Positions 4,897-40,528 of a stretch of 40,528 nucleotides of DNA are shown one piece after another; the stretch's first letter is position 1; every line of letters begins with the position of its first letter. A program made the translations under genes and the position numbers. The notes beneath the pieces were generated by a model. The model was not told the origin of the DNA, searched no databases, and was given only the letters and a program-made list of their open reading frames with translations. The stretch lies in assembly GCA_041577015.1 (NCBI GenBank), contig JBFGJV010000003.1, positions 1 through 40,528 on the forward strand, in the 5' to 3' direction. The DNA is from Myxococcota bacterium. Its GTDB lineage: Bacteria; Myxococcota_A; UBA9160; PR03.

Positions 4897-4916
4897 GGGT
4901 CGCTTCTCCGAGGCGC

Positions 4917-11086: not shown

Positions 11087-11192
11087 GCCCGCTCCGGCCT
11101 CCCGTCAGCACAGGATAGGGATCCCGCCGCTCCCTGCCGCCTCTGCCCCGTGGCTCGTCCCCGGGGTATCCTGACGGCCGGAAGGAGTCTCC

Positions 11193-13446: not shown

Positions 13447-13451
13447 GCGGC

Positions 13452-13919: not shown

Positions 13920-13983
13920 GGCTTCGTCCTCCGCCCGGCCCGGCGCAGGATAGGATCGGGAACGGGGGAACGCGAGCTGGCGT

Positions 13984-19916: not shown

Positions 19917-20006
19917 CGCCTCAGCTGCCTCCGTGTTGCCGGTCGGCTGCGCGCGCCCGAGCACGCCCGGCTCAAACGCTCGCTCGGCCCGACCGAAGAC
20001 GCTTCG

Positions 20007-21985: not shown

Positions 21986-24090
21986 CTCGCCGAGCCTTCC
22001 GGGCGGAGCTGGACGCGCCGCGGCCCACGGCCGCCTGGGTGATGGCCACGGTGGCCGCGTCGACGCTCTGGCTGACGCGTCAGCTCGAGCCGCTGGCCCT
22101 GCTGGCGCAGGCGGCGGCTCTGGCGATCTCCTTCACCTACCGGCGCCAGCCGTGCGCCTGGCAGCGCAACCCCTGGGTGCTGAACCTCGGCATGTTCGTG
22201 GTCTCGGGCGTCACCATCGCTACGACCCTGCGCGGCGCGTCGTCCACGGTCGCGCTGGCGCACTTCGCCGTGCTGGCCCAGGGCCTGCAGCTGTTGGATG
22301 CTCGACCGCGGCGCTCGGAGTTCCTGCTGGTGGCGCTGGCCCTGTTCCAGGTGCTGCTGGCGGCCAACCTGACCGACAGCATCTTCTTCGTGCCACTGCT
22401 CGGTGCCTTCGTGGTCTCCACGACGTGGACGCTGATCGTGCACACGCTGCGCGCCGAGGCTCTCGAGGCCGGGGTTGCTCACGCCCTTCCCGGCGTCCTC
22501 ACGGCGGGTCTGCTGCGCACGGCCTTCCTCGCGTCCGGCGCGTCCTTCTTGCTCGGCTTCCTGCTCTTCGTGATGCTGCCGCGCCTTCAGGGAAGCGTGG
22601 TGCAGGGAGGCGGCCCGGGGGCGCCGGCGGCGGGGTTCTCGGACCGCGTGGAGCTGGGCGAGCTCGGTCGCATCCGGCGGGATGCCACCGTGGCGCTGCG
22701 CGTGGAGACGCTGGAGGGGGAGCCGCCGCCTCCCGAGGCCGCCTACTGGCGGGGCCTCGCCTTCGACCGCTTCGACGGCCGCGGCTGGTCGGTGACGCCG
22801 GCCCGGCGCTGGAACGTGCCGGGCACCGCCGAGGTGGGACTGACGCTCGAGCCGGGAGCGGGGCAGGCGAACCTCGTGCAGCGCATCGTGCGCGAGCCGG
22901 TGGCGTCGGGGGTGATCTTCGCGCCGGGGGAGCCGCGCGCCCTCCAGGGAACCCTGCGCCGTCTGGAGCGCGACGCGAACGCGGGCTTCTACGCCCCGAC
23001 CCAGGGTCACGAGCGCGTCCGCTACACGGTGCGAAGCCACGCACCCAGCTGGAGCGACGCCGAGCTGGCCCGGGACGAGGCCCGGCCGCCGCACGCAGAC
23101 GGCGTGCGCTTCCTGCAGCTCCCGCCGTTCCCGGCCACCGTGGCGCAGCTGGCCGCGCGCCTGGTGGCGGGGAAGGGCAGCGATGCGGAGCGGGCCCGCG
23201 CCATCGAGGCCTGGCTGCGCCGCACCGGGCGCTACACGGACGATCCGCCCGCGCGCTCCGCTGCGCGCTCGCCGGTGGAGGCCTTCCTGTTCGAGGAGAT
23301 GGCCGGCCACTGCGAGTACTTCGCCACGGCGATGGTGGTGCTGGCGCGCTCGGTGGGGCTTCCGGCGCGCCTCGTGAACGGATTCGCCGGTGGGCGGGAG
23401 AACGCCATCGGGGGCTTCGTCGAGCTCACGCGCTCGGACGCCCATGCCTGGGTGGAGATCCACTTCGCCGACGCCGGCTGGGTGCGCTACGACCCGACGC
23501 CGCCCGATCGGCGCCTTCGCGCGGCGGTTCCCGCACCCCTGCTGGAGCGCATCCGCCAGCTGGGGAGTGCCGTGGAGCTGTGGTGGTTCCAGCGCGTGGT
23601 GGGATTCGATCGCTCCGACCAGCTCCACGCCATGAAGTCCGCCTGGCTGGCCTGGCGTCGCGTGCGACGCCCGGACGTGGCAACGCCGGGAGACATGTTC
23701 GAGCCGGGCGAGGGCCTGCGCAGCGCGGGCGCGCAGCTCCCGCGACTGGTGGCGGGCCTCACGGGCGCTCTCGCGCTGGCAGCCGGGCTGGTGTGGTGGA
23801 CGCGGCGCAGGCACCCGGCCGCGCGACCCGCGGCGTACGGCGAGGCCCTGCGCATCCTGGCGCGCCGCGGACTGGTGCGCGCGCCGAGCGCGACGGCCAG
23901 TGCGTTCGCGCGGCGCGTGCGACCCGAGCTTCCCGACGCCGCGGCCCACGCCTTTGACGCGCTCACCGCGGCGCACCTGGCCGTGCGCTTCGGGGGGCAC
24001 CGCGCGCCTGCTTCGGGCGAGCTGCTGGCGCAGCTGCGCCGAGGCCTGCGCGGCATCCGGGCCTCACGCGCCGGCAAGTCCAACGTGTAA
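21982..24090 (+). CDS. Membrane transglutaminase-like protein (DUF3488 + transglutaminase + DUF4129; TgpA-like)
   Basis: Multi-TM N-terminus, GFSDRVELG, YWRGLAFDRFDG, catalytic GHCEYFA / HAWVE / YDPTP; GTGA overlap with the DUF58 stop. Confidence 0.92.
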   Translation: MTRRAFRAELDAPRPTAAWVMATVAASTLWLTRQLEPLALLAQAAALAISFTYRRQPCAWQRNPWVLNLGMFVVSGVTIATTLRGASSTVALAHFAVLAQGLQLLDARPRRSEFLLVALALFQVLLAANLTDSIFFVPLLGAFVVSTTWTLIVHTLRAEALEAGVAHALPGVLTAGLLRTAFLASGASFLLGFLLFVMLPRLQGSVVQGGGPGAPAAGFSDRVELGELGRIRRDATVALRVETLEGEPPPPEAAYWRGLAFDRFDGRGWSVTPARRWNVPGTAEVGLTLEPGAGQANLVQRIVREPVASGVIFAPGEPRALQGTLRRLERDANAGFYAPTQGHERVRYTVRSHAPSWSDAELARDEARPPHADGVRFLQLPPFPATVAQLAARLVAGKGSDAERARAIEAWLRRTGRYTDDPPARSAARSPVEAFLFEEMAGHCEYFATAMVVLARSVGLPARLVNGFAGGRENAIGGFVELTRSDAHAWVEIHFADAGWVRYDPTPPDRRLRAAVPAPLLERIRQLGSAVELWWFQRVVGFDRSDQLHAMKSAWLAWRRVRRPDVATPGDMFEPGEGLRSAGAQLPRLVAGLTGALALAAGLVWWTRRRHPAARPAAYGEALRILARRGLVRAPSATASAFARRVRPELPDAAAHAFDALTAAHLAVRFGGHRAPASGELLAQLRRGLRGIRASRAGKSNV

Positions 24091-24194
24091 ACGCGCGACG
24101 GAGTGACCGCCCCGGGCGGCCGGGCCGACGACGCTCGCCGCTGCGTTCAATCCCGCCGACCGGTGCGCCGATCCGCAGCCTTGAGGGGGCTTCC

Positions 24195-24920
24195 ATGAGC
24201 GCAGAAAAGAACATCCTGCTCCTCGACTCCGAGACCCGGCGCAGCCAGGCGCTGGCCGACCGGCTGTACCGGATGGGGTTCGTCGTGCGGCGGGCGAAGA
24301 CGGCCGAGGACGCCTTCCAGCTGGCCGCGGAGCGGGGCCTCCAGTTCGGCGCCGCCCTGGTGCCTCCGGATCTCCCGGTGGCGAATCTGGCCGGTGCACT
24401 GACCGCGTGCGGTCGGCGCCTGGACGACGGCTCCCTGGTCTGGCTCGTGGTGGGGCGTTCGCCCGAGCCCGAACGGATGCAGGCGCTGCGCGACGCGGGC
24501 GTGCGTCTGGCGCTCTGGGAGCCCTTCGACGATGGAGCGTTGCGCTTCCAGGTGAACCGTGCTCTCGCGGGCCTTTGTGAGATCGCGCCGCGCCGGGAGC
24601 TCCGGGTTCCGGTGGGCCTGGCCACGGAGATCCGGGCCGGCGCACGCAGGAAGGTGGCCGGCGTCTACACCCTCTCGGCCGCAGGCGCCTTCCTGGAGAC
24701 TCCGCGTCCCTCGCTGAAGGGCGCCCCGGTCTCGTTGGACCTACCGATCGGCGCCGGCATCACCGCGGAGGGGCGCGTGGTCTACACCAACGTGCCCGGG
24801 AATCTGCGCAAGCGCACCCTGCCCGTGGGCATGGCGATCGCGTTCACCGGCCTGCCGGACGAGGCGGAGCAGGTGATCCGTCGCCGCGTGGCGGAGAAGG
24901 CGCTCTCCCTGGTGCTCTGA
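24195..24920 (+). CDS. Degenerate receiver-like domain plus PilZ domain protein
   Basis: N-terminal ILLLDSE...LWEPFD resembles a receiver fold without the canonical residues; RRELR (RxxxR), TLSAAGAFLET and GRVVY...GMAIAF are typical of PilZ. Confidence 0.7.
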   Translation: MSAEKNILLLDSETRRSQALADRLYRMGFVVRRAKTAEDAFQLAAERGLQFGAALVPPDLPVANLAGALTACGRRLDDGSLVWLVVGRSPEPERMQALRDAGVRLALWEPFDDGALRFQVNRALAGLCEIAPRRELRVPVGLATEIRAGARRKVAGVYTLSAAGAFLETPRPSLKGAPVSLDLPIGAGITAEGRVVYTNVPGNLRKRTLPVGMAIAFTGLPDEAEQVIRRRVAEKALSLVL

Positions 24921-28923: not shown

Positions 28924-30105
28924 CTAGCCTCCGGAGACCGCGACCTCGGCGGCGACCGGGGGCGGGGCGGCGTCCTCGCGCTGCTCGAGCCAGCCTTCGG
29001 GCAGCAGCACGCGCTGCCTTCCGCCGGACTTTCCTCGCGGCACGCGCAAGGCATGCCGGGGGAAGGGTTGCTCCGGGTCCAGCCGGTCCAGGATCGCCGC
29101 GAGCTCGGCGAGGGTCTCGACCCGGAACAGCCGGGCCCGCAGCGCGGCGCTGCCCCGGAAGCCCTTGGTGTACCAGCCGGCGTGCTTGCGGAAGGCGCGC
29201 ATGGCCTCGCGCTCGCCGGTCCAGCCGGCCAGCCGCTCCGCATGCTCGCGCATCACGTCGGCGATCTCGCCGAGACGCGGAGGTTCGGGAGGCTCCCGCC
29301 CCTGGAACATGTCCGCCAGGTCGCGGAACAGCCACGGGCGTCCCAGGCAGCCGCGCCCCACCACCACACCGTCGCAGCCCGTGAGCCTCATCATGCGCAG
29401 GGCGTCGTGCGCCTCCCAGACGTCCCCGTTGCCGAAGACCGGCAGCGCGCCCAGCGCCCGCTTCAGCTCGGCGATCGCCTCCCACCGGGCCTCGCCGTCG
29501 TAGAGCTGCGCTGCGGTGCGCGCGTGGAGAGCCACCGCCGCGCAGCCTTCGTCCGCGGCGACCCGGCCCGCGTCGAGGAACGTGGGATGCGCCTCGTCGA
29601 GCCCCAGGCGGAACTTGATCGTGACGGGCACGTGACCCGCGTGACGCACGGCCGAGCGCACGATGTTGCGCAGCAGGCGACGCTTCCAGGGCAGGGCGGC
29701 CCCGCCTCCCCGACGCGTGACCTTGCGCACCGGACAGCCGAAGTTCAGGTCCACGTGATCCACGCGGCCTTCCCCCACCAGCCAGGCGACCGCCCTGCCC
29801 ACGATGTCGGGATCGACGCCGTAGAGCTGGAGGCTGCGCGGCGCCTCGTCCGGGGCGAAGCCGGCCAGACGGTGGGTCTTGGCGTCGCCCTCCACGAGCC
29901 CCCGGGCGGTGATCATCTCGCTCACGTAGAGGGCGGCGCCGAAGCGCCGACACAGGGCGCGGAACGGCGCGTTGGTGACGCCGGCCATGGGGGCCAGCAC
30001 CACGGGGGGCCAGACGCGCAGGCCGCCCAGCTGCACGGGCGCGAACTCACCCGGGCGCGCAGGCGGCACGCGGCGGTTGGACTGGTCGTCGTCGCAGGGG
30101 TCCAC
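28924..30105 (-). CDS. dusB: tRNA-dihydrouridine synthase B
   Basis: LAPMAGVT, DLNFGCPVRKV, PVTIKFRLG, LHARTAAQLY, GNGD, GRGCLGRPWLF, RKHAGWY motifs; exact start uncertain. Confidence 0.92.
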   Translation of the reverse strand: MDPCDDDQSNRRVPPARPGEFAPVQLGGLRVWPPVVLAPMAGVTNAPFRALCRRFGAALYVSEMITARGLVEGDAKTHRLAGFAPDEAPRSLQLYGVDPDIVGRAVAWLVGEGRVDHVDLNFGCPVRKVTRRGGGAALPWKRRLLRNIVRSAVRHAGHVPVTIKFRLGLDEAHPTFLDAGRVAADEGCAAVALHARTAAQLYDGEARWEAIAELKRALGALPVFGNGDVWEAHDALRMMRLTGCDGVVVGRGCLGRPWLFRDLADMFQGREPPEPPRLGEIADVMREHAERLAGWTGEREAMRAFRKHAGWYTKGFRGSAALRARLFRVETLAELAAILDRLDPEQPFPRHALRVPRGKSGGRQRVLLPEGWLEQREDAAPPPVAAEVAVSGG

Positions 30106-30138
30106 GGTCTGGGAGGGTAGGGCGCCCAGCGATTCCCA

Positions 30139-30552
30139 TCAGCCCGCGGCGGTGCGCCGCGGGTTCTCGTGCGTCGCGCAGCGCTCGTCGCAGCCCACGC
30201 GTCCGGTCAGCCGCAGGCGGTTACGGGCGAACCAGCGGTAGCCGGCCTCCGCCACCCGCCGCAGGCCCGGCCAGCGGGTGGGCGCCAGCAGCCAGCCCAG
30301 ACCCACGGCGGCATAGGCGCGCCGGAAGACCTCGAGGCCCTCGATCACCCTTCCGTCGGGAAGGCGCCCGTGGATGCGCGCCATCAGGTCGGCCCGGGAG
30401 CGCCGATAGGGCGCCGGGTCGAAGGCGGGGGCCGCGATGTCGGTGAAGACGATGCGCCCGCGCTTGCGGTCGAGCCGTCGCAGCCCGCGGATCTCCCGCG
30501 CGCAGAGCGGGCAGTCGCCATCGAAGAGAATCTCGATCTCCCAATTCGCCAT
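30139..30552 (-). CDS. DCC family (DUF393) thiol-disulfide oxidoreductase-like protein
   Basis: ILFDGDCPLCAREI (DxxCxxC), Y.WFARNR; ATG 30552. Confidence 0.9.
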   Translation of the reverse strand: MANWEIEILFDGDCPLCAREIRGLRRLDRKRGRIVFTDIAAPAFDPAPYRRSRADLMARIHGRLPDGRVIEGLEVFRRAYAAVGLGWLLAPTRWPGLRRVAEAGYRWFARNRLRLTGRVGCDERCATHENPRRTAAG

Positions 30553-30634
30553 AGGGTGAATATAGACGAAAAATCCCTGTAATGACCAGTGAGAGGCAGA
30601 AATACGATCTAAGCTACTGTTTTTGCTAATTTCT

Positions 30635-30661
30635 TGTTGTCTAAATATTTTATAGACAACA
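30635..30661. promoter_or_regulatory. Palindromic operator TGTTGTCTA-N9-TAGACAACA (candidate CarH/LitR site)
   Basis: Perfect 9-bp inverted repeat in an AT-rich intergenic region; its core geometry matches 36151-36173 upstream of carH/phrB. Confidence 0.7.
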
Positions 30662-30681
30662 GCCCGCCAGCCGGGTACACT
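30653..30681 (+). promoter_or_regulatory. Sigma-70 promoter of the sigma factor gene
   Basis: -35 TAGACA 30653-30658, 17 bp spacer, -10 TACACT 30676-30681, then GGAGGAG RBS and ATG 30707. Confidence 0.7.
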
Positions 30682-30706
30682 CTCGATCGCGCCCGGAGGA
30701 GCTTCC

Positions 30707-32026
30707 ATGTATGCCACGGCAGCTGCGCTCGGCCACGCCAACGAGCCCGGTGCTGCGCGTTCGCCCGGGCGTCGCCCGGCCGCCAGCCCGGACATCCTCG
30801 ACTGCTACCTCGCCGACATCCGGGACATTCCCCTGCTGTCTGGAGAGCAGGAGCTGGCGCTCTCGCGGCGCATGCGGAGGGCGGAGGCCGAGCTGCGGCG
30901 GTCCCTGCTGGAGACGCCGGCGGCGGCCCGGCTCCTGGCACGGCGCTGGCGGCGGCTGCGGCGCGCGGGGCGCGTGACGGGAGGCCTGAGCGTCCTGCAC
31001 CGCGGGGGCGGCGACGGTGACGCGAGCCAGCACGTGAACGGCTGCATGGCGCAGGTGGAGAGGGTGCTCGGGCGACTCGACGAGGTAGCTCACGGCCGTC
31101 GCCGCGGGGCCGCCTCCGCGCGTCGAGCCCTGCGCGCCCGCTTGACCAGGATCTTGGAGCGCCTCGATCCGACTCCGGAGGTCCTCGCCGAGATCCACCG
31201 CGCGCTCAAGGCGGAGTCGGAGGACCCGGCGCTCACGGCTCGGGAGTGGGCGCGGGAGCGCGCGCGCGCACGACGCGCCTGTCGGAGCCTCACCGAGGCC
31301 AAGAACACCTTCATGCGCCGCAACCTGCGCCTGGTGGTGTCCGTGGCCAAGGGCTTTCGCGGCATGGGTGTCGAGTTCGAGGATCTGATCGAGGAGGGCA
31401 ACCTGAGTCTGATGCGGGCCGTGGAGAAGTTCGACCCGGAACGGGGCTTCCGCTTCTCCACCTATGCCGTGTGGTGGATCCGTCAGGCCTGTATTCGAGC
31501 GGTGCAGAACACGTCGCGGACGATCCGGCTGCCAACCCACCTCTACGACCGCCTGCTCAAGTACCGCCGCATCCTTGCAAACTGGCATCGAGACCACGCG
31601 GAGGATCCCAGCCTCGCCGACGTGGCGCGGGAGATGGGCGTCTCCGAGGACGAGCTCGCGGAGCTGGTGCAGGCAGACCGCCGGCCGCTCGGTCTCGACG
31701 AGCCGGTCAGCGGAAGCGATGACGTGGTGGTCGCCGATCGCATTCGTCACGACGAAGATGCCGATGCCGTCCTGGACGGGCTGCGCCTGCAGGGCGAGAT
31801 CCCCTCCCTTCTGGCCCGCCTGTCTCCACGCGAGCGGCGTGTCCTCGAGTGGCGCTTCGGTCTCGGCGAGGGGCCCGAGCAGACGCTTCAGGCGGTGGGC
31901 GACACGCTGGGCCTCTCTCGCGAGCGCGTGCGACAGATCGAGCGTGAAGCCCTGGTGAAGCTGCGCGGCGAGGCGGAGGTGCGCGGCCTGCGCAGTCTAC
32001 TGGATGGGGAGGTCGCGCCGACCTGA
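30707..32026 (+). CDS. RNA polymerase sigma-70 factor, RpoD/RpoS-like (group 2-type, no region 1.1)
   Basis: Region 1.2 YLADIRDIPLLSGEQE, non-conserved insert, NLRLVVSVAK, DLIEEGN.SLMRAVEKFD, RFSTYAVWWIRQA, RTIRLP, region 4.2 LSRERVRQIE. Confidence 0.95.
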   Translation: MYATAAALGHANEPGAARSPGRRPAASPDILDCYLADIRDIPLLSGEQELALSRRMRRAEAELRRSLLETPAAARLLARRWRRLRRAGRVTGGLSVLHRGGGDGDASQHVNGCMAQVERVLGRLDEVAHGRRRGAASARRALRARLTRILERLDPTPEVLAEIHRALKAESEDPALTAREWARERARARRACRSLTEAKNTFMRRNLRLVVSVAKGFRGMGVEFEDLIEEGNLSLMRAVEKFDPERGFRFSTYAVWWIRQACIRAVQNTSRTIRLPTHLYDRLLKYRRILANWHRDHAEDPSLADVAREMGVSEDELAELVQADRRPLGLDEPVSGSDDVVVADRIRHDEDADAVLDGLRLQGEIPSLLARLSPRERRVLEWRFGLGEGPEQTLQAVGDTLGLSRERVRQIEREALVKLRGEAEVRGLRSLLDGEVAPT

Positions 32027-32033
32027 GCGGCGC

Positions 32034-32516
32034 TCAGGCCTCCAACCGTGAGCCGACCTCCGCGGCGGGGAAGAGCTCCCGGATGCGCCGGAAGCGGTAG
32101 TCGAAGATCGCGGCCAGCGCGGCGCGGACGGCCAGCTCGTGAGCCAGCGTTCCGAGCGGGCCCAGCGGCAGTCGGTAGTGCACGCGGTCGGTCATGAGCA
32201 CGCCGCCTCCCAGCGTCGCGAAGCGATGCTCGTGCTCCCAAAGGGCGTACGGGCCGCGCTGTTGGACGTCGAGGAACCCATCGGGCGGCTTCCAGCGCGC
32301 GATGCGCGTCCGCCAGCGCACCGGGAGGCCGGCGAGCCGGATCCGATAGGAGATGAGTGCTCCCTCGCGCATCGCGATGGGCAGGGGCGTAAGGATGCGG
32401 AAGCCCAGCCAGGGCGGCGTGAGGGTCTCCAGATTGGCCGCGTCCGAGAAGAAGGAGAATACCCGCTCCCGGGGAGCGGGAATCCACTGCTCCCGCTCCA
32501 GCAGGTACGGCTTCAA
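32034..32516 (-). CDS. SRPBCC (START-like) family protein
   Basis: LEREQWIPAPRERVFSFFSDAANLETLTPP, F.D.Q.RGPY..WEHEHRF, DRVHY.LP, IFDYR; TTG 32516 in a TTGA overlap with the acyltransferase stop. Confidence 0.88.
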   Translation of the reverse strand: MKPYLLEREQWIPAPRERVFSFFSDAANLETLTPPWLGFRILTPLPIAMREGALISYRIRLAGLPVRWRTRIARWKPPDGFLDVQQRGPYALWEHEHRFATLGGGVLMTDRVHYRLPLGPLGTLAHELAVRAALAAIFDYRFRRIRELFPAAEVGSRLEA

Positions 32517-33556
32517 GCGGCGCTCGGGAGCGTTTCCGCCCGATGCGCCTCGATCCAGGCGTCCAGGCGACTCCACTGGTTGTAGAGCCACGCCACCCGC
32601 TCCTCGCGGCCACGGGGAATCTCCGTCGCCGGCGCGCGCCCGAAGGCGACACGGATGCGTCGCCCGATCAGGGCGCCGCGCCAGAGCTGCCTGAAGCTGG
32701 CGGTGCCCTCGAAGCCCACGTGGGCGAGGAAGAGCACGTCGGCCTCGGGGCTGGCCTCCAGCAACGCCAGCGGGCCGCCGAGCCGCGGTGGAAGCACGTG
32801 GTGGAGCTGGCGCGCCCGTGCCACCAGGCCGGGGTCGTGGGCGCGCTCCAGCCGCGCCAGCACGCGCTCGCGCTTGGCGGGGCTGAAGCGTGTGCCCTCG
32901 GGAAAGATCAGCACGCCCTCGTCGTCGGCCAGGTGCTCCGCGAGGCGCCGCACCGCGTCGAGTTCGCGCTCGCTGTCCGCCGAGTCGCGTCTCACGAAGA
33001 CGTTCGGCACGCGCTGCCCCACCACGTCGAGACAGGGATCCCACAGCAGCTCGCGCTTGATCACGTAGCGCAGGCGAACGTCGTGCTGCGCCGAGATCAA
33101 GACGGCCGGCAGGATGGTGTCGCCCACGCTCGCGTGCCGGCAGAACACGAGCAGCGGTCCGCGCCCGATGGCCCCCGCCCCGCTCACCTCGAGCTCGACG
33201 TCGTAGATGCGCCGCACGCCCCACAGCAGCAGCCGCGCCCACAGGCCCTGGAGCCGGTGGTTCCAGCGCGCGTAACGCTCCGGCGCCGCGCCTGCCCAGC
33301 TTCCGCTCGCGAGCCAGGCCGTGCCCGCAGCCACGAGGCCCAGGCTCTCGCACCCCAGGTAGAAGGCCAGGAACAGCACGAGGCGTGCGATGGGAAACGG
33401 CCGTCGCCGCAGGGCGTCCACCAGGAGGGCCGCGGGCAACACGATGGGCAGCAACGTCCACAGCGCGACGGTCATGGCCAGATAGCCGGGAATCGTGAGC
33501 GCACGGCGGCCCCAGCGCGCCGCGAGCGTCTCGTCCCCGGGAAGCGGTCCTCTCAC
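32513..33556 (-). CDS. PlsC-like phospholipid/glycerol acyltransferase with N-terminal TM segments
   Basis: HASVGD (HxxxxD), YVIKRELLWDP, FVRR, IFPEGTR, LPPR motifs; start GTG 33556 is approximate. Confidence 0.88.
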   Translation of the reverse strand: MRGPLPGDETLAARWGRRALTIPGYLAMTVALWTLLPIVLPAALLVDALRRRPFPIARLVLFLAFYLGCESLGLVAAGTAWLASGSWAGAAPERYARWNHRLQGLWARLLLWGVRRIYDVELEVSGAGAIGRGPLLVFCRHASVGDTILPAVLISAQHDVRLRYVIKRELLWDPCLDVVGQRVPNVFVRRDSADSERELDAVRRLAEHLADDEGVLIFPEGTRFSPAKRERVLARLERAHDPGLVARARQLHHVLPPRLGGPLALLEASPEADVLFLAHVGFEGTASFRQLWRGALIGRRIRVAFGRAPATEIPRGREERVAWLYNQWSRLDAWIEAHRAETLPSAA

Positions 33557-33576
33557 GGTTCGAAGCGGACGCGCGC

Positions 33577-34119
33577 TCAATCGCTTCCCAGCGCCGGCCC
33601 CGCCCGAGCACGGAGCTCCAGGAAGCCAGCCATCACACCCGCGGCCAGCAGGTTCGCGACGGCCACCGACCCGGCGCCCAGCTCGCCGAGCGCGCCCGGC
33701 ATGAAGAGACCACCGATTCCCAGGAAGATCGCCTGGCACGCCACGAAGAGCGCCAGCCACACCAGAAGAGCGTGCAGGAAGCTGCGAGCCCCGGAGCGCC
33801 GACGGCTCAGCGCGGCGAACGCCGCCGTCAGACCCAGGAATACGAAGATCGTGCCGTGCATCACCGTGTAGCCGGCGACCAGCGCGCCCTGCACGACGCC
33901 GGGCTCGGGAAGCTTTCCCAGGAAGAAGGCGGACCCGAGCGCGTGGGGCGTGGCGAACGGCCGGCCCTCGCCAAGATCGAGCACGAAGAAGAAAGCGGCG
34001 ATCGCGAATGCACCGAGCACGCCCGCGAGGATCCCGTGGGCCACCCACGGGACGGAGCTCACGTCCACCGCGTCGACGTCGACCTCGCTCGCCGTGGTCT
34101 CGACGGATTTCGTGGTCAT
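33577..34119 (-). CDS. Hypothetical four-TM membrane protein
   Basis: ATG 34119 with AGAGAGGA RBS; hydrophobic helices; G.PF.TP.ALG and YTVMHG segments. Confidence 0.75.
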   Translation of the reverse strand: MTTKSVETTASEVDVDAVDVSSVPWVAHGILAGVLGAFAIAAFFFVLDLGEGRPFATPHALGSAFFLGKLPEPGVVQGALVAGYTVMHGTIFVFLGLTAAFAALSRRRSGARSFLHALLVWLALFVACQAIFLGIGGLFMPGALGELGAGSVAVANLLAAGVMAGFLELRARAGPALGSD

Positions 34120-34224
34120 GGGGTCACGTCCTCTCTGCGTATCCGACGACCACACTACATGAGATGCCGGCAGCGGGTACACGGCTTGCCCCGTGGGGTC
34201 GGGCGTGTGGAGGTCCCCGCGCCC

Positions 34225-35223
34225 TCAGGCGGGCGGGGCGGGGGCCGCGCCCACCCCCCGCCGCGGTGCGCGCCGGCGCGGCGCGCTCTCCAGGCCGGCG
34301 AGCCGGGTGCAGAGATCCCAGAGCGCACGGCGGTCGTCCGCCGTCTCGCGGGTGAAGGGCAGCAGGTGCTCGCGGGCCGGTGCCCGGTCGAACCAGAAGC
34401 CCCCGCTCGAGCGCGCGGGCTCGGCGGCCACCGCCAGCCAGATGGCCGTGTCCGCGCCCTCCTCGGCTGTGCGGAGGATGGCGCGCGTTGCGCGCCAGAA
34501 GCGCGGCAGAGACGTGCGCACCCCGGCGGTCGCGGCCCATCCCGGATGCATGGCGTGCACCACCACGCCATCCTCGCGCAGCCGCTCGGCCAGGAGCCCG
34601 GTCAGGACCACCTGCATCCGCTTGGCCTGCGCATAGGCGACGGTGCCGTCGAAGGCCCGGCGCCGCCAGGTGAGATCGTCCAGGGAGAGGCGCTGGGTGT
34701 ACATGCCGCCCGAGGACACGAACACGATCCGCGCGTGTCGGGCCGCCCGGAGCTTCCCCTCGAGCAGACGCGTGAGCAGGAAGGGACCCACCACGTGGGT
34801 TGCGAGCGTCCGCTCGATGCCCTCTTCGGTGAGCTCGCGCTCCGCCAGCAGGGCTCCGGCGTTGTGGACCAGCAGGTCCACGCGAGCCTCGGAGAAGTGC
34901 TCGGCGAAGCGCCGCACGGAGCCCAGGTCCGAGACGTCCAGCACGGCCAGGCGTATCCGGGGGTTGCCGCTCTCGGCCCGCAGTCCCGCCTCGGCCTCGC
35001 GGCCGCGCGCCTCGCTCCGACACAGCAGCCACACCGTGGCGCCCCGACGCGCCAGGGCCAGCGCCGTCGCGCGACCGATGCCCGCGTTGGCCCCCGTCAC
35101 CAGGCAGATGCGGCCGGACAGATTTGCGTCCAGATCCTCGGGCCGGAAGCCTCGCGCATGCCGCCGGAAGCCGTTGCGGTCGAAAGAGAAGACGATCGAG
35201 GCGTCGAGCAGGCGCCCGATCAC
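34225..35223 (-). CDS. Short-chain dehydrogenase/reductase (DHRS12-like)
   Basis: TGANAGIG, HNAG, VSSGGMY, YAQAKR, MHPGWAATAGV, GADTAIWL; GTGA overlap with the carH stop. Confidence 0.9.
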   Translation of the reverse strand: MIGRLLDASIVFSFDRNGFRRHARGFRPEDLDANLSGRICLVTGANAGIGRATALALARRGATVWLLCRSEARGREAEAGLRAESGNPRIRLAVLDVSDLGSVRRFAEHFSEARVDLLVHNAGALLAERELTEEGIERTLATHVVGPFLLTRLLEGKLRAARHARIVFVSSGGMYTQRLSLDDLTWRRRAFDGTVAYAQAKRMQVVLTGLLAERLREDGVVVHAMHPGWAATAGVRTSLPRFWRATRAILRTAEEGADTAIWLAVAAEPARSSGGFWFDRAPAREHLLPFTRETADDRRALWDLCTRLAGLESAPRRRAPRRGVGAAPAPPA

Positions 35224-36122
35224 GACGCGCGCCGGGCCCGGGCGCCGAGCAGACCCACCTTGTGCTCGAGCGCCTCGGCCGACTCGATGCGCTGAGCGCC
35301 GGACGGAAGCTCGACCGCGTCGGAGCCCGGGCCTCCCAACCAGAGCTCCACCTGGGGCGGAAGTCCGGCGCGCAGGCTGCGCAGCGTGCGCTCGGCCTCG
35401 CGCGCGGGAAGCCGGGCGATGCCCAGCGCGACCGCCCGCGCATCGAGCTGCTCGGTGGCGGCCAGCACCTCCTCAACCGGGAGGTCCGGTCCCAGGAAGA
35501 CCGCGTTGGCGCCCGCCTCCGCGGCGGCTACGGCGGCGACGAGCGCGCCGATCTCGTGGCGCTCGTTCGGGGGCGTCGTGAAGAGCACCGTCGGGGCCTG
35601 GGCCAGCGCGCGTCGGCGCAGGGAGGAGCCGAGCAGGCTGCGTATGGCTGCGCTCGCCAGGTGCTCCGCGGCCACGCACAGCTCGCCGGCCTTCCAGCGC
35701 TCGCCCACCTCGCGCAGCAGGGGCGAGACCACCAGGCTGCCGAAGCGCCGGGGGCCGAGCGCCGCGAGCTGCAGGGCCAGCTGGCGCTCCACCTCGTCCA
35801 CGTCCAGTCGATGGAGCGCCGAGAGCAGCGCCTGCAGCGGACCCTGCGCGGGCGCCTCGCGCGTCTCCACGCGTCGCTCCAGCTCGGCGTCCCCGAGCGC
35901 CGCGACCTCCGAGATCGGATGACCGGCCTCCACCGCCGCGCGGAGTAGACGCAGGCGCATCACCTCCGACTCGCGGTAGCGCCGCGTGCCCCCCGGCGTG
36001 CGCAGCGGTCGGACCGCCCCGTAACGCCGCTCCCAGGCCCGCAAGACGTGCGGGGAGAGGCCGGTCAGTCGGGATACGGCGCCGAGGGAGTAGGTCGCTT
36101 CGAGGGATCGGGTCCTGGGCAC
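35220..36122 (-). CDS. carH: MerR-family, cobalamin-binding light-responsive repressor (CarH/LitR)
   Basis: MerR HTH with LRAWERRYG and RTPGGTRRY; W-x9-EH (WKAGELCVAAEH) AdoCbl photoreceptor motif; ERHEIG B12-binding motif; FLGPDLP; LGG. Start taken as GTG 36122. Confidence 0.92.
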   Translation of the reverse strand: MPRTRSLEATYSLGAVSRLTGLSPHVLRAWERRYGAVRPLRTPGGTRRYRESEVMRLRLLRAAVEAGHPISEVAALGDAELERRVETREAPAQGPLQALLSALHRLDVDEVERQLALQLAALGPRRFGSLVVSPLLREVGERWKAGELCVAAEHLASAAIRSLLGSSLRRRALAQAPTVLFTTPPNERHEIGALVAAVAAAEAGANAVFLGPDLPVEEVLAATEQLDARAVALGIARLPAREAERTLRSLRAGLPPQVELWLGGPGSDAVELPSGAQRIESAEALEHKVGLLGARARRAS

Positions 36123-36128
36123 TGAGGA

Positions 36129-36205
36129 AGGGTCGCGAGTGAGGGCAGCGCTGTCAAGAAAGGATCTAGACAGGATTTGACAGCCCGGGAGCCTCGTGCG
36201 AGCTT
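36129..36205. promoter_or_regulatory. Divergent carH / phrB promoters with candidate CarH operator
   Basis: CTGTCAA-N9-TAGACAG palindrome 36151-36173 and a further TTGACA 36177-36182 (AGGATCTAGAC/AGGATTTGAC direct repeat). Minus-strand TTGACA-17-GACCCT places +1 near GTG 36122; plus-strand TTGACA-17-GAGCTT precedes phrB. Confidence 0.7.
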
Positions 36206-36218
36206 CCGGGCGATTCGC

Positions 36219-37631
36219 ATGCGTGCCCTCCACTGGTTTCGCAGCGACCTGCGTCTGCGCGACAACGCCGCCCTGGCCGCCGCGGCGTCCGCCGCGGACG
36301 AGCTGGTGGTCGCCTTCGTGCTGGACGACCGCCTGCTGGCCGGCGAGTCCACGGGCGCACCCCGGGTGCGCTTCCTGCTCGGTTGCCTGGAACGTCTGGC
36401 CGCGGATCTGGAGCGGCGCGGTCAGCGCCTGGTGGTGCGACGCGGCGACCCCCGCCGTGAGCTGCCCCGCCTGCTGCGGGAGACGGGAGCCGAGCGGCTC
36501 ACCTTCGCACGCGACTACGGCCCCTATGCCCGCGCTCGGGACGAGGCCGTGCGGGTGGGCGCCGAGAAGCTCGGCGTCGTGGTTCGCGACCTGAAGGACC
36601 GGGTGGTCTTCGAGAGCTCCGAGGTGCGCACCCGAGCCGGCGAACCCTTCCGCGTCTACACGCCCTTCCGGCGCGCGTGGGTGGCGCGCTTCCGCGAGGA
36701 CCCGCAGGAGCCGCTGGGGCCGGTGCGCCTGCCGCCGCCTCCGTCCGACCTGCGTGCCGGCAGGCTTCCGGAGGCCCGCAGCGTCGGCGCCGCGGACGAC
36801 GCCACCCAGATCCCCCCGCCCGGCGAGGCGGCCGCGCGTCGCCGGCTCCATGCCTTCCTGGAGCAGGGTCTCGCCGCGTACGCGAAGCGCCGCGACCTGC
36901 CGGGCGTAGACGGCACCTCCCGTCTCTCGCCCTACCTGCGTCTCGGCGCGATCTCCGTGCGCTGCTGCATCCAGGCCGCTCGCGAGCGCGTCCGCGACGA
37001 GCCGGCGGCCCGGGACGGGGCTCGTACCTGGATCGACGAGCTGGTCTGGCGCGAGTTCTACCACGCGATCCTGGCCGAGCATCCGCACGTGCTCGAGCGC
37101 GCCTTCCGTCCCGAGTTCGAGGCGATGCGCTGGAACGACGACGAGCCCGGCTTCCGAGCCTGGTGCCAGGGACGCACGGGCTATCCCTTCGTGGACGCCG
37201 CCATGCGGCAGCTGGCGGCCACGGGCTGGATGCACAACCGTGCGCGCATGGTGGTGGCCAGCTTCCTGACCAAGGACCTGCTGGTGGACTGGCGCCTGGG
37301 CGAGCGCTTCTTCATGCAGCACCTCGTGGACGGGGACCCCGCCTCGAACAACGGGGGCTGGCAGTGGGCGGCCTCCACCGGGACCGACGCACAGCCGTAC
37401 TTCCGCATCTTCAACCCCGTCTCCCAGGGCGAGCGCTTCGATCCGGACGGGAGCTACGTGCGGCGCTGGGTGCCCGAGCTCGCGCAGGTTCCCGACCGCT
37501 TCCTGCACAAGCCGTGGCTCTCACCGAGCCCTCCGCGCGACTATCCGGCGCCCATCGTCGATCACGCCGAGCGCCGGGCGCTGGCCCTGCGCCGCTACGA
37601 GGCCGCACGCGGCGCGCACTCCGGGCGATGA
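36219..37631 (+). CDS. phrB: Deoxyribodipyrimidine (CPD) photolyase
   Basis: HWFRSDLRLRDN, YTPF, TSRLSPYL, ELVWREFY, GRTGYPFVDAAMRQL, GWMHNRARM, NNGGWQW, YFRIFNP, FDPDG.YVRRWVPEL; ATG 36219. Confidence 0.96.
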   Translation: MRALHWFRSDLRLRDNAALAAAASAADELVVAFVLDDRLLAGESTGAPRVRFLLGCLERLAADLERRGQRLVVRRGDPRRELPRLLRETGAERLTFARDYGPYARARDEAVRVGAEKLGVVVRDLKDRVVFESSEVRTRAGEPFRVYTPFRRAWVARFREDPQEPLGPVRLPPPPSDLRAGRLPEARSVGAADDATQIPPPGEAAARRRLHAFLEQGLAAYAKRRDLPGVDGTSRLSPYLRLGAISVRCCIQAARERVRDEPAARDGARTWIDELVWREFYHAILAEHPHVLERAFRPEFEAMRWNDDEPGFRAWCQGRTGYPFVDAAMRQLAATGWMHNRARMVVASFLTKDLLVDWRLGERFFMQHLVDGDPASNNGGWQWAASTGTDAQPYFRIFNPVSQGERFDPDGSYVRRWVPELAQVPDRFLHKPWLSPSPPRDYPAPIVDHAERRALALRRYEAARGAHSGR

Positions 37632-38620
37632 GCCCGTCCCGACCCGGACCGGTCGAGCCGCTCTGGAAGGATCGCGCGCCCATCCGCGTCGGCGTCTCCA
37701 GCTGTCTGCTGGGTCGGAAGGTGCGCTGGGACGCCGGGCACAAGCGCGACCGTTTCGTCACCGACGTGCTGGGCGCGTACGTCGAGTGGGTGCCGGTCTG
37801 CCCCGAGGTGGAACTCGGCATGGGGATCCCGCGTGAGCCGGTGCGGCTCGTGCGCGACGAGGGCGGCGTGCGCATGATCGCCGACCGCAGCGGGCGCGAT
37901 CACACCGGGGCCATGCGCCGCTGGGCGAAGCGTCGCGTCCGTGAGCTGGAGAAGCTCGAGCTGTGCGGCTATGTGCTGAAGAAGGATTCCCCCAGCTGCG
38001 GGATGGAGCGCGTGAGGGTCTACGCCGCGAGCGGCATGCCGCAGAAGAACGGGCGCGGACTGTTCGCGGATGCCCTGCTGCAGCACTTCGAGAGCCTGCC
38101 GGTGGAGGAAGAGGGGCGTCTCCACGACCCCCGGCTGCGCGAGAACTTCGTGGAGCGCGTCTTCGCGTATCGGAGGTTGCGCTCGCTGTTCGCCTCGCGC
38201 TGGAGCCTCCGAGACCTGGTTGCCTTCCACACCGCCGAGAAGCTCCAGCTGATGGCGCACTCACCGGGGGGCTATCGGGAGCTCGGGCGCCTGGTGGCCA
38301 ATGCGAAGCAGCACACGCGGACCCATCTCCGCGAGCATTACGTTCGCGGCTTCATGCGCGCACTCGGCCACCCGGCCACGGTGCGACGCAACGTGAACGT
38401 GCTCCAGCACGTGCTCGGCCACTTCAAGAAGCGCCTGGAGGCTGCGGACCGCGCCGAGTTGCTCCACCTGATCCAGGACTACCGGGCCGGGCTCGTGCCG
38501 CTGGTGGTTCCGATCACCTTGATCCGTCACCACGTACGACGGCTCGGACTGGACTACCTGGCGGGCCAGGTCTATCTGGAGCCCCATCCCAAGGAGATGA
38601 TGCTCCGCAACCACGTCTAG
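37628..38620 (+). CDS. DUF523 + DUF1722 (YbgA) fusion; TudS/RudS-like thiouridine desulfidase
   Basis: VGVSSCLLG..VRWDAGHK, CPEV, KKDSPSCG (Fe-S Cys ligands), EEEGRL.D..LRENF, C-terminal YL.GQVYLEPHP; ATGA overlap with phrB. Confidence 0.9.
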   Translation: MSPSRPGPVEPLWKDRAPIRVGVSSCLLGRKVRWDAGHKRDRFVTDVLGAYVEWVPVCPEVELGMGIPREPVRLVRDEGGVRMIADRSGRDHTGAMRRWAKRRVRELEKLELCGYVLKKDSPSCGMERVRVYAASGMPQKNGRGLFADALLQHFESLPVEEEGRLHDPRLRENFVERVFAYRRLRSLFASRWSLRDLVAFHTAEKLQLMAHSPGGYRELGRLVANAKQHTRTHLREHYVRGFMRALGHPATVRRNVNVLQHVLGHFKKRLEAADRAELLHLIQDYRAGLVPLVVPITLIRHHVRRLGLDYLAGQVYLEPHPKEMMLRNHV

Positions 38621-39198
38621 CCGGCGGGGCCCCGGAGCAAGCGCTCGATGGCCCGGATCAGCTCCGGGTCTTCGGGCTGCTGCGATGGCGCGAACTTCGC
38701 CACCACGCGTCCGCTTCGGTCCAGCAGGTACTTCTGGAAGTTCCAGGCCACCTCGCCGCCCAGCGGCTCAGGCAGACCGGTGAGCCGGGCATAGAGCTCG
38801 TGCTTATGCTCGCCGCGCACGTGGATCTTCTCGAACATCGGGAAGCGCACGCCGTACGTCGAGCGGCAGAACTCCGCGATCTCGCGGTTCGTGCCCGGCT
38901 CCTGGCCCGCGAAGTCGTTGGAGGGGAAGCCGAGCACGACGAGGCCTCGCTCGCCGTAGCGCTCGTAGAGCTTCTCGAGCCCGGCGTACTGCCTGGTGAA
39001 GCCGCAGCGGCTCGCGACGTTCACGATCAGGACCACCTTGCCCCGGTAGGCGAGCAGATCCTGCGGCGTCCCGTCGATGCGCTTCATGGTGAGCTCGAGG
39101 ACCGGCGGTGAGGCGGCGTCCGGCTCGGCACCCGCCGCAAGGACCGCCAGCCCCGCGATCGCCGCCGCCAGACCTCGTCGGAGCAAGGCGTTCATCAC
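38617..39198 (-). CDS. Cys-type glutathione peroxidase family protein with N-terminal signal peptide
   Basis: GKVVLIVNVASRCGFT, GFPSNDF..QEPG, WNFQKYL; hydrophobic N-terminus; start is GTG 39198 or ATG 39195. Confidence 0.92.
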   Translation of the reverse strand: MMNALLRRGLAAAIAGLAVLAAGAEPDAASPPVLELTMKRIDGTPQDLLAYRGKVVLIVNVASRCGFTRQYAGLEKLYERYGERGLVVLGFPSNDFAGQEPGTNREIAEFCRSTYGVRFPMFEKIHVRGEHKHELYARLTGLPEPLGGEVAWNFQKYLLDRSGRVVAKFAPSQQPEDPELIRAIERLLRGPAG

Positions 39199-39228
39199 GT
39201 GCTCTCCCTCCGACCCCGGCCGCGTTCT

Positions 39229-39256
39229 TTGACAAGCCGCGGACGAACCCTATCCC
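39229..39256 (+). promoter_or_regulatory. Candidate sigma-70 promoter (possibly CarH-controlled) of the FAD oxidoreductase
   Basis: TTGACA 39229-39234, CGGACG 11 bp later, TATCCC 39251-39256 (16 bp spacer), purine-rich RBS before ATG 39288. Confidence 0.45.
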
Positions 39257-39287
39257 CCAAGGTTAGCCAACGGGGGAAGGAAGTCGG

Positions 39288-40528
39288 ATGAACGCCACGA
39301 GGCAGCACCCGGTGGCGGTGGTGGGCGCCGGCATGGCGGGCCTCACCTGCGCGCTGACGTTGGTCCGGGAGCACCTCTCCGTGCGCCTGTTCGAAGCGGA
39401 CGATGCGGTGGGAGGTCGGGTGCGCACCGACCAGGTGGGCCGCTTCCGGCTCGACCGGGGCTTCCAGGTGCTCCAGACCGCGTATCCCGAGGTGCAACGC
39501 TTGCTCGACCTCCAGGCGCTGCGCCTGGGTCGCTTCCTGCCGGGCGCCCTGGTGCGGGTGCACGGGCGCCTCGAGCGCGTGGTGGACCCGTTCCGGCGCC
39601 CCGGCGAGGCTCTGGTGGCCCTCCGGGCCCGCGTGGGCTCCACCGCCGACAAGCTGCGCCTGGCGCGCCTGCGCTGGCGACTCACCCGCGGCTCCCTGGC
39701 CTCCCTGAGCGAGCGTCCGGAGCGCACGACCGAGGCGGCGCTTCGCGACGAGGGCTTCGGTCGGGAGATCGTCGAGCGCTTCTTCCGTCCCTTCCTGGCG
39801 GGGGTCTTCCTGGAGCGGGAGCTCGCCACGTCGAGCCGGATGTTCGACTTCGTGTTCCGCATGTTCGCGCTGGGCGACGCCGCGCTGCCGGCCGGCGCCA
39901 TGGAGGCGATCCCGCGCCAGCTGGCCTCGCGACTTCCGATCGGAGCGCTGCACCTGCACTCCCGGGTGCAAGCCCTCGGCAGCGACGAGGTCGAGCTCGC
40001 CAGCGGGGAGACGTTCCCGGCCTCGGCGATCGTGGTGGCCACCGACGCGGACGAAGCCCGTCGCCTGGTGGGGGACGGGGACCCCCTGGAGTGGAACCCG
40101 GCCACCACGCTCTACTACGACGCTCCGGAAGCTCCGGTCCGCGCGCCCATGCTGGTGCTGGACGGCGAGGGTTGCGGCCCGATCAACCATCTCTGCGTCC
40201 CGAGCCAGGTGGCCGCGGAGTACGCGCCTCCCGGGCGCGCGCTGGTGTCCGCCAGCGCGATCGGCGTGCACTCCGAGACGGATGCCGCGCTGGACGCCGC
40301 CGCTCGGGAGCAGCTGGCGCCGTGGTTCGGCCCGGCCGTGGGGGACTGGCGCCTGCTGCGCGTGGACCGCATCCCGCACGCGCTTCCCCGCCAGGGGCCG
40401 CCCCTCGCCCGCGCCGGGGCCGAGGCCCGGCAGGTGGCAGCGGGCCTCTTCGTCTGCGGCGACCACCTGGCCCTGGCCTCCCTGAACGGCGCCATGGCGT
40501 CCGGGCGTCGCGCCGCCGAGGCGGTGGC
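39288..40528 (+). CDS. FAD-dependent oxidoreductase (amine oxidase / phytoene desaturase-protoporphyrinogen oxidase superfamily), 3' end outside window
   Basis: Hand-translated: VAVVGAGMAGL, FEADDAVGGRVRTD, LDRGFQVLQTAYPE, FFRPFLAGVFL, CGDH...SLNGAMASGRRAAEAV; missing from the ORF track. Confidence 0.92.
   Translation, partial: MNATRQHPVAVVGAGMAGLTCALTLVREHLSVRLFEADDAVGGRVRTDQVGRFRLDRGFQVLQTAYPEVQRLLDLQALRLGRFLPGALVRVHGRLERVVDPFRRPGEALVALRARVGSTADKLRLARLRWRLTRGSLASLSERPERTTEAALRDEGFGREIVERFFRPFLAGVFLERELATSSRMFDFVFRMFALGDAALPAGAMEAIPRQLASRLPIGALHLHSRVQALGSDEVELASGETFPASAIVVATDADEARRLVGDGDPLEWNPATTLYYDAPEAPVRAPMLVLDGEGCGPINHLCVPSQVAAEYAPPGRALVSASAIGVHSETDAALDAAAREQLAPWFGPAVGDWRLLRVDRIPHALPRQGPPLARAGAEARQVAAGLFVCGDHLALASLNGAMASGRRAAEAV

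Follow-up and report, generated by a model that had tools for sequence, protein, structure and literature searches.

The stretch of DNA analyzed here (the window) comprises positions 1 to 40,528 of contig JBFGJV010000003.1 from the Myxococcota bacterium assembly GCA_041577015.1 (Myxococcota_A; UBA9160; PR03). The assembly is a metagenome-assembled genome (MAG) of 3,234,206 bases in 368 contigs, 88% complete (G000 in our comparison sets), and its closest named relatives are likewise “Myxococcota bacterium” MAGs. The contig, which has a G+C content of 72%, carries a gene for an RpoD-like sigma factor and, 3.2 kb away, a gene for a B12-binding photoreceptor of the CarH type, and the promoter regions of both genes contain closely similar sites that we consider to be putative CarH operators. 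The features on which the analysis turns are as follows.

30139-30552, minus strand: DCC1-like thiol-disulfide oxidoreductase (PF04134, 99 bits), divergent from the sigma gene
30559-30588, minus strand: predicted promoter of the DCC1-like gene, TGGTCA-N18-TATATT (consensus scan), ending 7 nt short of its ATG and clear of the palindrome
30635-30661: putative CarH operator, the perfect palindrome TGTTGTCTA-N9-TAGACAACA, with the core TGTCTA-N9-TAGACA at 30638-30658
30653-30658, plus strand: predicted -35 element of the sigma gene, TAGACA, which is the right arm of the palindrome (consensus scan)
30676-30681, plus strand: predicted -10 element of the sigma gene, TACACT, after a 17-nt spacer (consensus scan)
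30707-32026, plus strand: RpoD-like (group 1/2-like) sigma factor, an open reading frame (ORF) of 439 aa with regions 1.2, a nonconserved spacer, 2, 3, and 4
35220-36122, minus strand: carH, 300 aa with a GTG start, encoding a MerR-type helix-turn-helix (HTH) and B12-binding domains
36152-36182: carH/photolyase operator region, TGTCAA-N9-TAGACA-N4-TTGACA, whose outer hexamers are outward-facing -35-like elements of both genes
36219-37631, plus strand: DNA photolyase, phr (PF00875, PF03441), divergent from carH

An earlier note on this DNA had described the sigma as a 439-aa protein with regions 1.2, 2, 3, and 4 and a nonconserved region but no region 1.1, and Pfam searches bear this out. Sigma70_r1_2 (residues 29 to 58, 31.0 bits), region 2 (203 to 271, 79.4 bits), and region 4 (368 to 420, 71.4 bits) all score above their cut-offs, region 3 (284 to 352) reaches 24.2 bits, slightly below its cut-off of 25.3, and the 439 residues contain no match to Sigma70_r1_1 (region 1.1) and no Pfam domain in the approximately 140 aa separating region 1.2 from region 2. 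Among the NCBIfam models, the protein scores 260.5 against the RpoD/SigA subfamily (cut-off 384.5), 248 against RpoD NF004208 (cut-off 555), 217.5 against TIGR02393 (cut-off 354), and 253.2 against RpoS TIGR02394 (cut-off 378.7). Lacking region 1.1 and falling under the RpoD equivalog cut-offs, it does not classify as a group 1 (primary RpoD) factor, nor, being under the corresponding equivalog cut-off, as an RpoS; all curated NCBIfam cut-offs are missed. Its best alignments with solved structures are nonetheless to primary sigmas (mycobacterial SigA, E = 1.7e-56, residues 184 to 433), and its region 4.2 sequence, SRERVRQIE, matches that of primary sigmas. Region 2.4 reads WWIRQACIRA as against WWIRQAITRA in the RpoD of the same genome; the latter, canonical version is encoded by a separate gene on contig C6, which is likely to be the housekeeping sigma of the host, and the genome contains three further RpoD-like paralogues at 41 to 48% identity. 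Two candidate interpretations of the protein were rejected: its match to MzaA, the sigma of the MZA anti-phage system (249 bits against a cut-off of 800), is explained by the common sigma-70 core, and an I/V at the region 2.4 position occupied by T in RpoD is no mark of a light sigma, as all alternative paralogue clades have I/V there too.

The intergenic region upstream of the sigma gene is 154 bp long and AT-rich, and the palindrome within it was matched in none of 100 shuffles. The claim that the -35 element of this gene is itself the right arm of the palindrome proved correct (30653-30658, within 30635-30661). The predicted promoter, TAGACA-N17-TACACT, has 9 of 12 matches to the sigma-70 consensus and is one of only two sigma-70-like promoters that the consensus scan found in positions 30000 to 40528 (shuffle mean, 0.2); transcription would start near 30688, and GGAGG lies 7 nt ahead of the ATG. 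The DCC1-like gene on the other side has its own promoter 50 nt off, and hence the palindrome's left arm does not serve as the -35 element of that gene; with its -10 hexamer lying 7 nt before the ATG (30552), the DCC1-like mRNA is probably leaderless.

At the genome scale, the pattern TGTCWA-N9-TAGACA occurs exactly twice in the 3,234,206 bases, namely, at the sigma promoter and, 5.5 kb away, between carH and phr, and the reversed-pattern control gave no site in the same genome. The palindrome had been said to be found also at carH; this holds for the right arm and the 9-nt spacing, which are identical at the two sites, whereas a single base sets the two left arms apart, and a search for the exact TGTCTA-N5-15-TAGACA accordingly recovers the sigma site alone. 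Relaxing the pattern to TGTnnA-N9-TnnACA yields 11 sites, the other 9 of which have GC-rich spacers, 6 of them inside ORFs called coding by the criterion of GC content at third codon positions (GC3). A general inverted-repeat search returned GC-rich noise as its top 25, with neither operator site among them, and a pattern with an all-A/T spacer is too strict for the sites of family f4, discussed below.

The CarH protein carries several of the motifs described for class I CarH/LitR photoreceptor repressors. Its HTH domain (PF13411, 54.6 bits) contains RAWERRY, which fits the RxWERRY recognition-helix motif given in PMC9304148; the Wx9EH motif is present as WKAGELCVAAEH from residue 143; and of the B12-binding motif D/ExHx2G/P-x41-SxT/V-x22-27-GG, the first and last elements, ERHEIG at residue 187 and GG, stand at the correct spacing. 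PF02607 is matched above its cut-off (38.5 bits against 23) and PF02310 just under it (30.2 against 32.1). No second CarH-like gene was found in the host genome, the other matches being two weak ones confined to the HTH (E of about 1e-4), and the genome also encodes a PduO-type adenosyltransferase (204.9 bits). The carH/phr intergenic region is 96 bp long (36123-36218). The carH start lies 6 to 7 nt past a putative -10 hexamer, at 36122, and in locus L003 of a relative, the carH ATG comes 6 nt after GAAGCT; the carH mRNA is probably leaderless in both. Downstream of carH lie four further genes on the same strand.

34225 to about 35200, minus strand: SDR oxidoreductase
33577-34224, minus strand: unknown protein
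32513 to about 33570, minus strand: PlsC-type acyltransferase
32034-32510, minus strand: SRPBCC/polyketide-cyclase-like protein

Together with carH these four genes (32034-35219) probably constitute one operon, which is convergent with the sigma gene and ends 8 nt from its stop codon. Phytoene synthase (PF00494) was not found in the host genome or in that of its relative G073 (88% and 95% complete, respectively), both of which carry carH. In these lineages, CarH would appear to have no part in carotenogenesis and to go instead with photolyase, lipid-related genes, and the sigma.

The half-sites agree with what has been described for the family. Footprinted CarH operators are 11-bp repeats with TnnACA that overlie a -35 or -10 element, often of divergent promoters (PMC9304148), and class II LitR binds TGTACA-N12-TGTACA over a -35 (PMC9758184). 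Both TAGACA and TTGACA fit the CarH half-site TnnACA, and they overlap predicted promoter elements at the sigma gene and at carH/phr alike.

Comparison with relatives was based on a sample of 400 genomes of the phylum for the sigma and 151 genomes of the order for carH. One clear orthologue of the sigma emerged from the phylum-wide search, in G073 (JBFIML010000006.1), at 66 to 67% identity, and an E value of 1e-60 was attained in no genome beyond the class to which the window belongs; among the four related loci returned, a Saccharibacteria match is a spurious one to region 4. The G073 sigma gene has TGTCTA-N9-TAGACA at the same place upstream, followed by TAGACT at an 18-nt spacing, and a DCC1-like gene is divergent from it too. 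Its carH/phr pair lies 6.7 kb from the sigma site and has TGTCAA-N9-TAGACA-N4-TTGACG, and among the ten TGTnnA-N9-TnnACA sites of that genome, the sigma and carH/phr sites alone have an AT-rich spacer. The orthologue thus keeps both the operator and the carH linkage, the joint loss of which the earlier note had named as refuting its proposal.

That note had also called for a survey of co-occurrence with carH. We found carH in 84 of the 151 genomes of the order, and in at least 26 of these 84, drawn from seven families, a sigma match lies no more than 7 kb from carH; in at least 22 genomes it lies within about 500 bp. These counts are lower bounds, the order-wide sigma search having listed 150 of its 450 matches, and as the genomes are related and not independent, no P value is attached to them. 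The linked genomes are the following.

carH and sigma within about 500 bp: G228, G083, G218, G318, G098, G263, G363, G273, G088, G398, G283, G303, G432, G401, G457, G479, G409, G411, G415, G435, G487, G456
carH and sigma 3 to 6 kb apart, match to match: G000, G073, G093, G460

The Wx9EH and ExHxxG motifs are kept in all 21 of the sigma-linked CarH copies examined. Eight of the nine divergent carH-sigma pairs inspected have TGTnnA-N9-T(T/A)(G/T)ACA between the genes, as in TGTACAgatattttcTTGACA, and in those eight a -10-like hexamer for the sigma gene follows the right arm after 17 nt. The spacer GAT....TC and the 9-nt spacing (8 nt in some) are conserved across families. Where carH and the sigma gene follow one another on the same strand, the site lies between them as TGTCTA/TGTCGA-N8-TAGACA-N5-TTGACA (G083 and G401) or GGTCTA-N9-TTGACA (G303), and G457 has TAGACA-N5-TTGACA; in G228, where the two genes are only 11 bp apart, TGTCAA-N8-TTGACA-N5-TAGACA is found instead upstream of carH, beside a divergent DCC1-like gene. 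Further sites lie upstream of the sigma gene in G432 (TGTCTA-N9-TAAACA; a sigma 47% identical overall, convergent with a carH of 62% identity), in G456 (TGTATA-N9-TATACA), and, on a short contig, in G373 (TGTCTA-N9-TAGACA), and in G083 a photolyase gene is divergent from the carH-sigma pair. The operator inspection covered the linked pairs other than those of G479, G411, G415, G435, and G487.

As a control, the 300 nt upstream of sigma genes were scanned for inverted pairs (N8-9) and for 11-bp direct pairs. The motif was absent upstream of the slowly evolving “C37-like” paralogue clade (0/10), the “C251-like” and RpoD-like sigmas (0/11, two with little upstream DNA), sigmas from the other genera of the window's family (0/6), and, by the strict pattern, further fast-evolving sigmas (0/8). 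It was present in all eight members of the carH-adjacent clade of family f4, in two of three sister sequences, and in three of eight in the window's own clade, the window itself left out. In a quick IQ-TREE of 61 sigmas, some of which were added for being linked so that its proportions are biased, the window sigma groups with that of G073 (99*) inside an eight-member clade (SH-aLRT 90) that also contains G432, G373, G456, G093, G460, and one unlinked sequence, seven of the eight being carH-linked or operator-bearing. G083, G401, and G409 form a separate clade of carH-adjacent sigmas (99*), as do the f4 sequences (100*), while the 19 members of the conserved paralogue clades show zero linkage. 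The linkage label requires 8 changes on this tree versus 19.2 in shuffles, with none of 500 shuffles as low; the backbone lacks resolution, and linkage may have arisen once or several times.

Next to the sigma gene, or next to the carH-sigma pair, the DCC1-like gene recurs as a divergent neighbor. Pfam confirms it in the window, in L003 (6321-6752), and in L101 of G228 (2272-2769), and coding similarity near the gene start, judged by eye, indicates it in G303, G401, G432, and G457; this oxidoreductase is possibly the third conserved component of the module. In G432, a gene of FAD-binding type, judged from its N-terminal sequence alone, is divergent from carH. Second sigma paralogues of family f4 situated away from carH, L028 (G353:C23) and L094 (G273:C15), have an 11-bp direct pair, TTGACA-N5-TAGACA or TTGACA-N5-TATACA, about 100 nt upstream, and some genomes may hence possess two CarH-controlled sigmas. 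Two additional operator-like sites were noticed in relatives: one in L098 (G373:C19, at about 2042) lies between an SDR gene and an operon for an AhpC/TSA peroxiredoxin and an ABC1 kinase, such as one would expect among the members of a photo-oxidative regulon, and the other in L099 (G098:C29, at about 2039) lies upstream of an SDR gene, behind which comes a second gene of MerR type.

Taking these findings together, we propose, with a probability of about 0.72, that adenosylcobalamin (AdoCbl)-bound CarH represses the RpoD-like sigma gene in the dark and that light derepresses it. The protein would then be a dedicated light-response sigma of the RpoD-like kind, its transcription gated directly by the photoreceptor. 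In the dark, oligomers of AdoCbl-CarH on TGTCTA-N9-TAGACA would cover the -35 element and exclude RNA polymerase carrying the housekeeping sigma, and CarH would also sit on the similar site in the divergent promoter region that its own gene has in common with photolyase. Upon illumination, photolytic cleavage of the Co-C bond would break the oligomers and free both promoters, and photolyase, the carH operon (SDR, acyltransferase, and SRPBCC proteins), and the sigma would be made, the last of these then steering core RNA polymerase to genes of a second tier. The dark step draws on the sequence and its comparison, with sites that are conserved and unique in the genome, a recurrent linkage of carH to a sigma gene, and photoreceptor motifs retained in CarH; the release step would follow from the known photochemistry of CarH (PMC9304148), and the redirection of the polymerase is conjecture on our part. 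As regards the wiring of CarH over the sigma promoter put forward in the earlier note, the operators in the orthologue, the adjacency in seven families, the position of the sites over the -35 element in the pairs inspected, the agreement of the half-site with the published CarH/LitR one, and the absence of the motif from all 21 conserved paralogues speak for it, while CarH binding, repression, and light induction at this promoter are what we infer from them. The two CarH-type sites per genome in the host and G073, along with the apparent absence of phytoene synthase, fit a cascade without proving one.

Several observations weigh against this proposal. On the side of the protein, the SxT/V element of the CarH B12 motif reads GIA, and the best family for it, the NCBIfam CarH model NF052513, is matched over residues 9 to 285 with only 159.8 bits against a cut-off of 400. 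On the side of the DNA, the half-sites at the sigma gene are inverted and 15 bp apart, unlike tandem 11-bp repeats, and the direct pair TAGACA-N4-TTGACA at carH/phr has a 10-bp period rather than 11; a period of 11 bp is seen in the relatives G083, G401, G457, and G228, as TAGACA-N5-TTGACA or TTGACA-N5-TAGACA. The linkage is patchy across relatives. In the window's family, six genomes (genera g2 and g4) possess a carH of 56 to 58% identity and no window-type sigma, their own sigma being of a different clade, unlinked, and without the operator; L020, L004, and L022, near the window clade, have neither linkage nor operator; in G093 and G460, with the sigma 5.7 kb from carH, the 300 nt upstream of the sigma gene are devoid of a site; and the divergent pair of G218 and the locus of G409 have only a variant and a distorted arrangement, respectively. 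To these are to be added the biased composition of the tree and the 88% completeness of the host genome, through which more sites or regulators may have escaped.

The geometry of the site leaves room for a different account, in which another regulator binds the palindrome or the sigma regulates itself, and its proximity to carH reflects merely a common photo-oxidative stress neighborhood. Characterized CarH operators consist of three or four tandem 11-bp direct repeats (PMC9304148), from which the inverted repeat departs; the sigma, with the sigma-70-like -35 contacts SRERVRQIE retained, could itself read TAGACA or TTGACA; and an odd GAnnnT hexamer that recurs 17 nt after TTGACA at these loci (see below) might mark a nonhousekeeping sigma. 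We nevertheless consider this account unlikely, given that in two genomes the motif is confined to this promoter and that of carH itself, that its half-site equals that of CarH/LitR, and that one CarH-like protein plus two weak HTH-only matches were found in the host. As for autoregulation, the window sigma promoter has an ordinary TACACT as its -10 element, and such a loop would be compatible with CarH repression without replacing it. That the inverted repeat is no operator at all, being just the back-to-back -35 elements of divergent promoters in AT-rich DNA, strikes us as very improbable. Each arm could indeed be the -35 of one gene in the nine divergent carH-sigma pairs, and the outer hexamers TGTCAA and TTGACA at carH/phr do point outward; yet in G083, G401, and G303 the motif lies between same-strand genes with no divergent gene, which at the G083 and G401 sites leaves the left arm unexplained by a divergent -35, and the DCC1-like gene of the window has a separate promoter. 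The conserved spacing and GAT....TC spacer, together with the absence of the motif upstream of the 21 paralogues, also speak against it.

A further possibility accepts the control of the sigma by CarH and replaces the signal, such that the circuit responds to cobalamin supply and the sigma reports B12 starvation. CarH requires AdoCbl both to oligomerize and to bind DNA (PMC9304148), and the classical light-protective output is missing in that phytoene synthase was not found in the host or G073. Against this stand the operator that carH has in common with the photolyase gene, the presence of Wx9EH, which is linked to photoreceptor function, in each of the 21 CarH copies examined that adjoin a sigma, the adenosyltransferase gene of the host, and the peroxiredoxin and SDR genes with a site in a relative, which fit a photo-oxidative response. 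We hence regard B12 starvation as an improbable natural signal and retain light-released repression of the sigma gene by CarH as the better explanation.

Non-ECF sigmas (ECF, extracytoplasmic function) do take part in light or photo-oxidative responses elsewhere, as in the RpoE-to-RpoHII pathway of Rhodobacter sphaeroides and the group 2 sigmas of cyanobacteria. These are induced via an ECF sigma with its anti-sigma or by photosynthetic or redox signals, and we know of none that is controlled by a photoreceptor repressor acting on the promoter of the sigma gene.

Known light cascades were stated in the earlier note to use ECF sigmas, which agrees with the published accounts of LitS (PMC11519972) and CarQ (PMC9304148). 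As far as these accounts go, the sigmas in CarH/LitR circuits are either of the ECF class (LitS, CarQ) or the housekeeping sigma reading a repressed promoter (PMC9304148, PMC9758184). The closest parallel is the LitR-LitS system of Streptomyces, a two-step light cascade of a B12-based sensor of the LitR/CarH family and a sigma (PMC11519972, PMC9758184), and the repressor and sigma genes are linked here as well, at 3.2 kb in the window and within about 500 bp in at least 22 relatives. LitS, however, belongs to the ECF class (group 4; PMC11519972) and directs carotenoid genes, whereas the window sigma has regions 1.2 and 3, best matches primary sigmas, and falls outside the ECF class. In the same phylum, the CarH/CarA system of Myxococcus xanthus offers an AdoCbl-dependent repressor over the -35 element of a sigma-A-type promoter that is released by light, and CarH operators in Sorangiineae and Nannocystineae often serve divergent promoters; its described target is the carotenoid operon and its operators are tandem 11-bp direct repeats (PMC9304148). 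CarQ of M. xanthus, an ECF sigma freed from the anti-sigma CarR by singlet oxygen, is in that account no target of CarH (PMC9304148). The class II LitR proteins of Pseudomonas (PplR1 and PmlR2) bind paired TGTACA over the -35 element of sigma-70-type light-inducible promoters, with hexamers 12 nt apart versus 9 here and no sigma gene among the targets reported there; PmlR2 differs further in being light insensitive itself, with the blue-light LOV protein PmSB-LOV as its anti-repressor (PMC9758184).

Full-text literature searches, which left most subscription journals outside their coverage, found no link of CarH/LitR to a non-ECF sigma and returned ECF-sigma precedents only, in keeping with the claim that this wiring is undescribed. 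What is known, then, is the sensor and the logic, i.e., a repressor over a -35 element and a sensor-to-sigma cascade; what is apparently new is the other class of sigma, the other operator geometry, and the lack of a carotenoid output. Described CarH/LitR circuits end at structural genes (carotenoid or photolyase) or ECF sigmas, and CarH acting on an RpoD-like sigma would be a new kind of output. As a housekeeping-like sigma competes for core polymerase and is able to shift much of transcription, one light repressor could in this manner reach far beyond a few operators. With no phytoene synthase found in two carH-bearing genomes, the role of CarH in myxobacteria would also widen beyond carotenoids. 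The inverted TnnACA pair with 9-nt spacing offers a test of how CarH oligomers read DNA, and the repressor, operator, and sigma make a compact orthogonal set of parts that could extend the CarH/LitR optogenetic tools. All carriers of the module found are MAGs, and work on cultured model species would hence have missed it.

The promoters of the module themselves are mostly of one type, a perfect or near-perfect TTGACA followed after 17 nt by a -10 element of the form GAnnnT in place of TAnnnT. Such promoters are seen in the window (36123-36218), where carH has GACCCT and phr GAGCTT, the TACACT of the sigma gene being the exception; in L003 (13520-13660); and at the sigma promoters of L029, L032, L035, L036, L040, L043, L046, and L077. 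The -10 hexamers in relatives include GACACT, GACTCT, GACATT, GAATCT, GACTTT, GATAGT, and GATGCT. Such promoters may represent the class read by the light sigma or else a habit of the lineage; as the sigma's own class, TTGACA-N17-GAnnnT could add positive feedback to the switch. More tentatively, as a reading somewhat less likely than not, we suggest that this uncultured order has a two-tier light regulon in which CarH would directly gate just two or three promoters per genome, one of them that of a dedicated RpoD-like sigma evolved as a gene pair with carH and often with the DCC1-like gene; this sigma, in place of CarH, would drive most photoprotective genes in lineages apparently without carotenoid synthesis. 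Candidates for such second-tier, sigma-dependent control lie at the end of the window.

38617-40526: glutathione peroxidase gene (minus strand) divergent from a flavin amine-oxidase-family gene (plus strand)

The 68-bp spacer of this pair has TTGACA with a poor -10 element and no CarH-type site.

Elsewhere in the window, positions 1-4950 and 14003-17091 contain long frames on either strand (up to 1649 aa) that lack a Pfam match, and the GC3 filter points to no convincing gene. Between these, at 11175-14003, genes for a RimK-type ATP-grasp ligase, a succinylglutamate-desuccinylase/aspartoacylase-like protein, and a putative ATP-dependent zinc protease stand together. At 19917-24920, genes for a MoxR-type AAA ATPase, a large TgpA-like transglutaminase (DUF4129), and a PilZ-domain protein follow one another; they resemble a common type of MoxR/transglutaminase cluster with no apparent connection to the sigma and carH.

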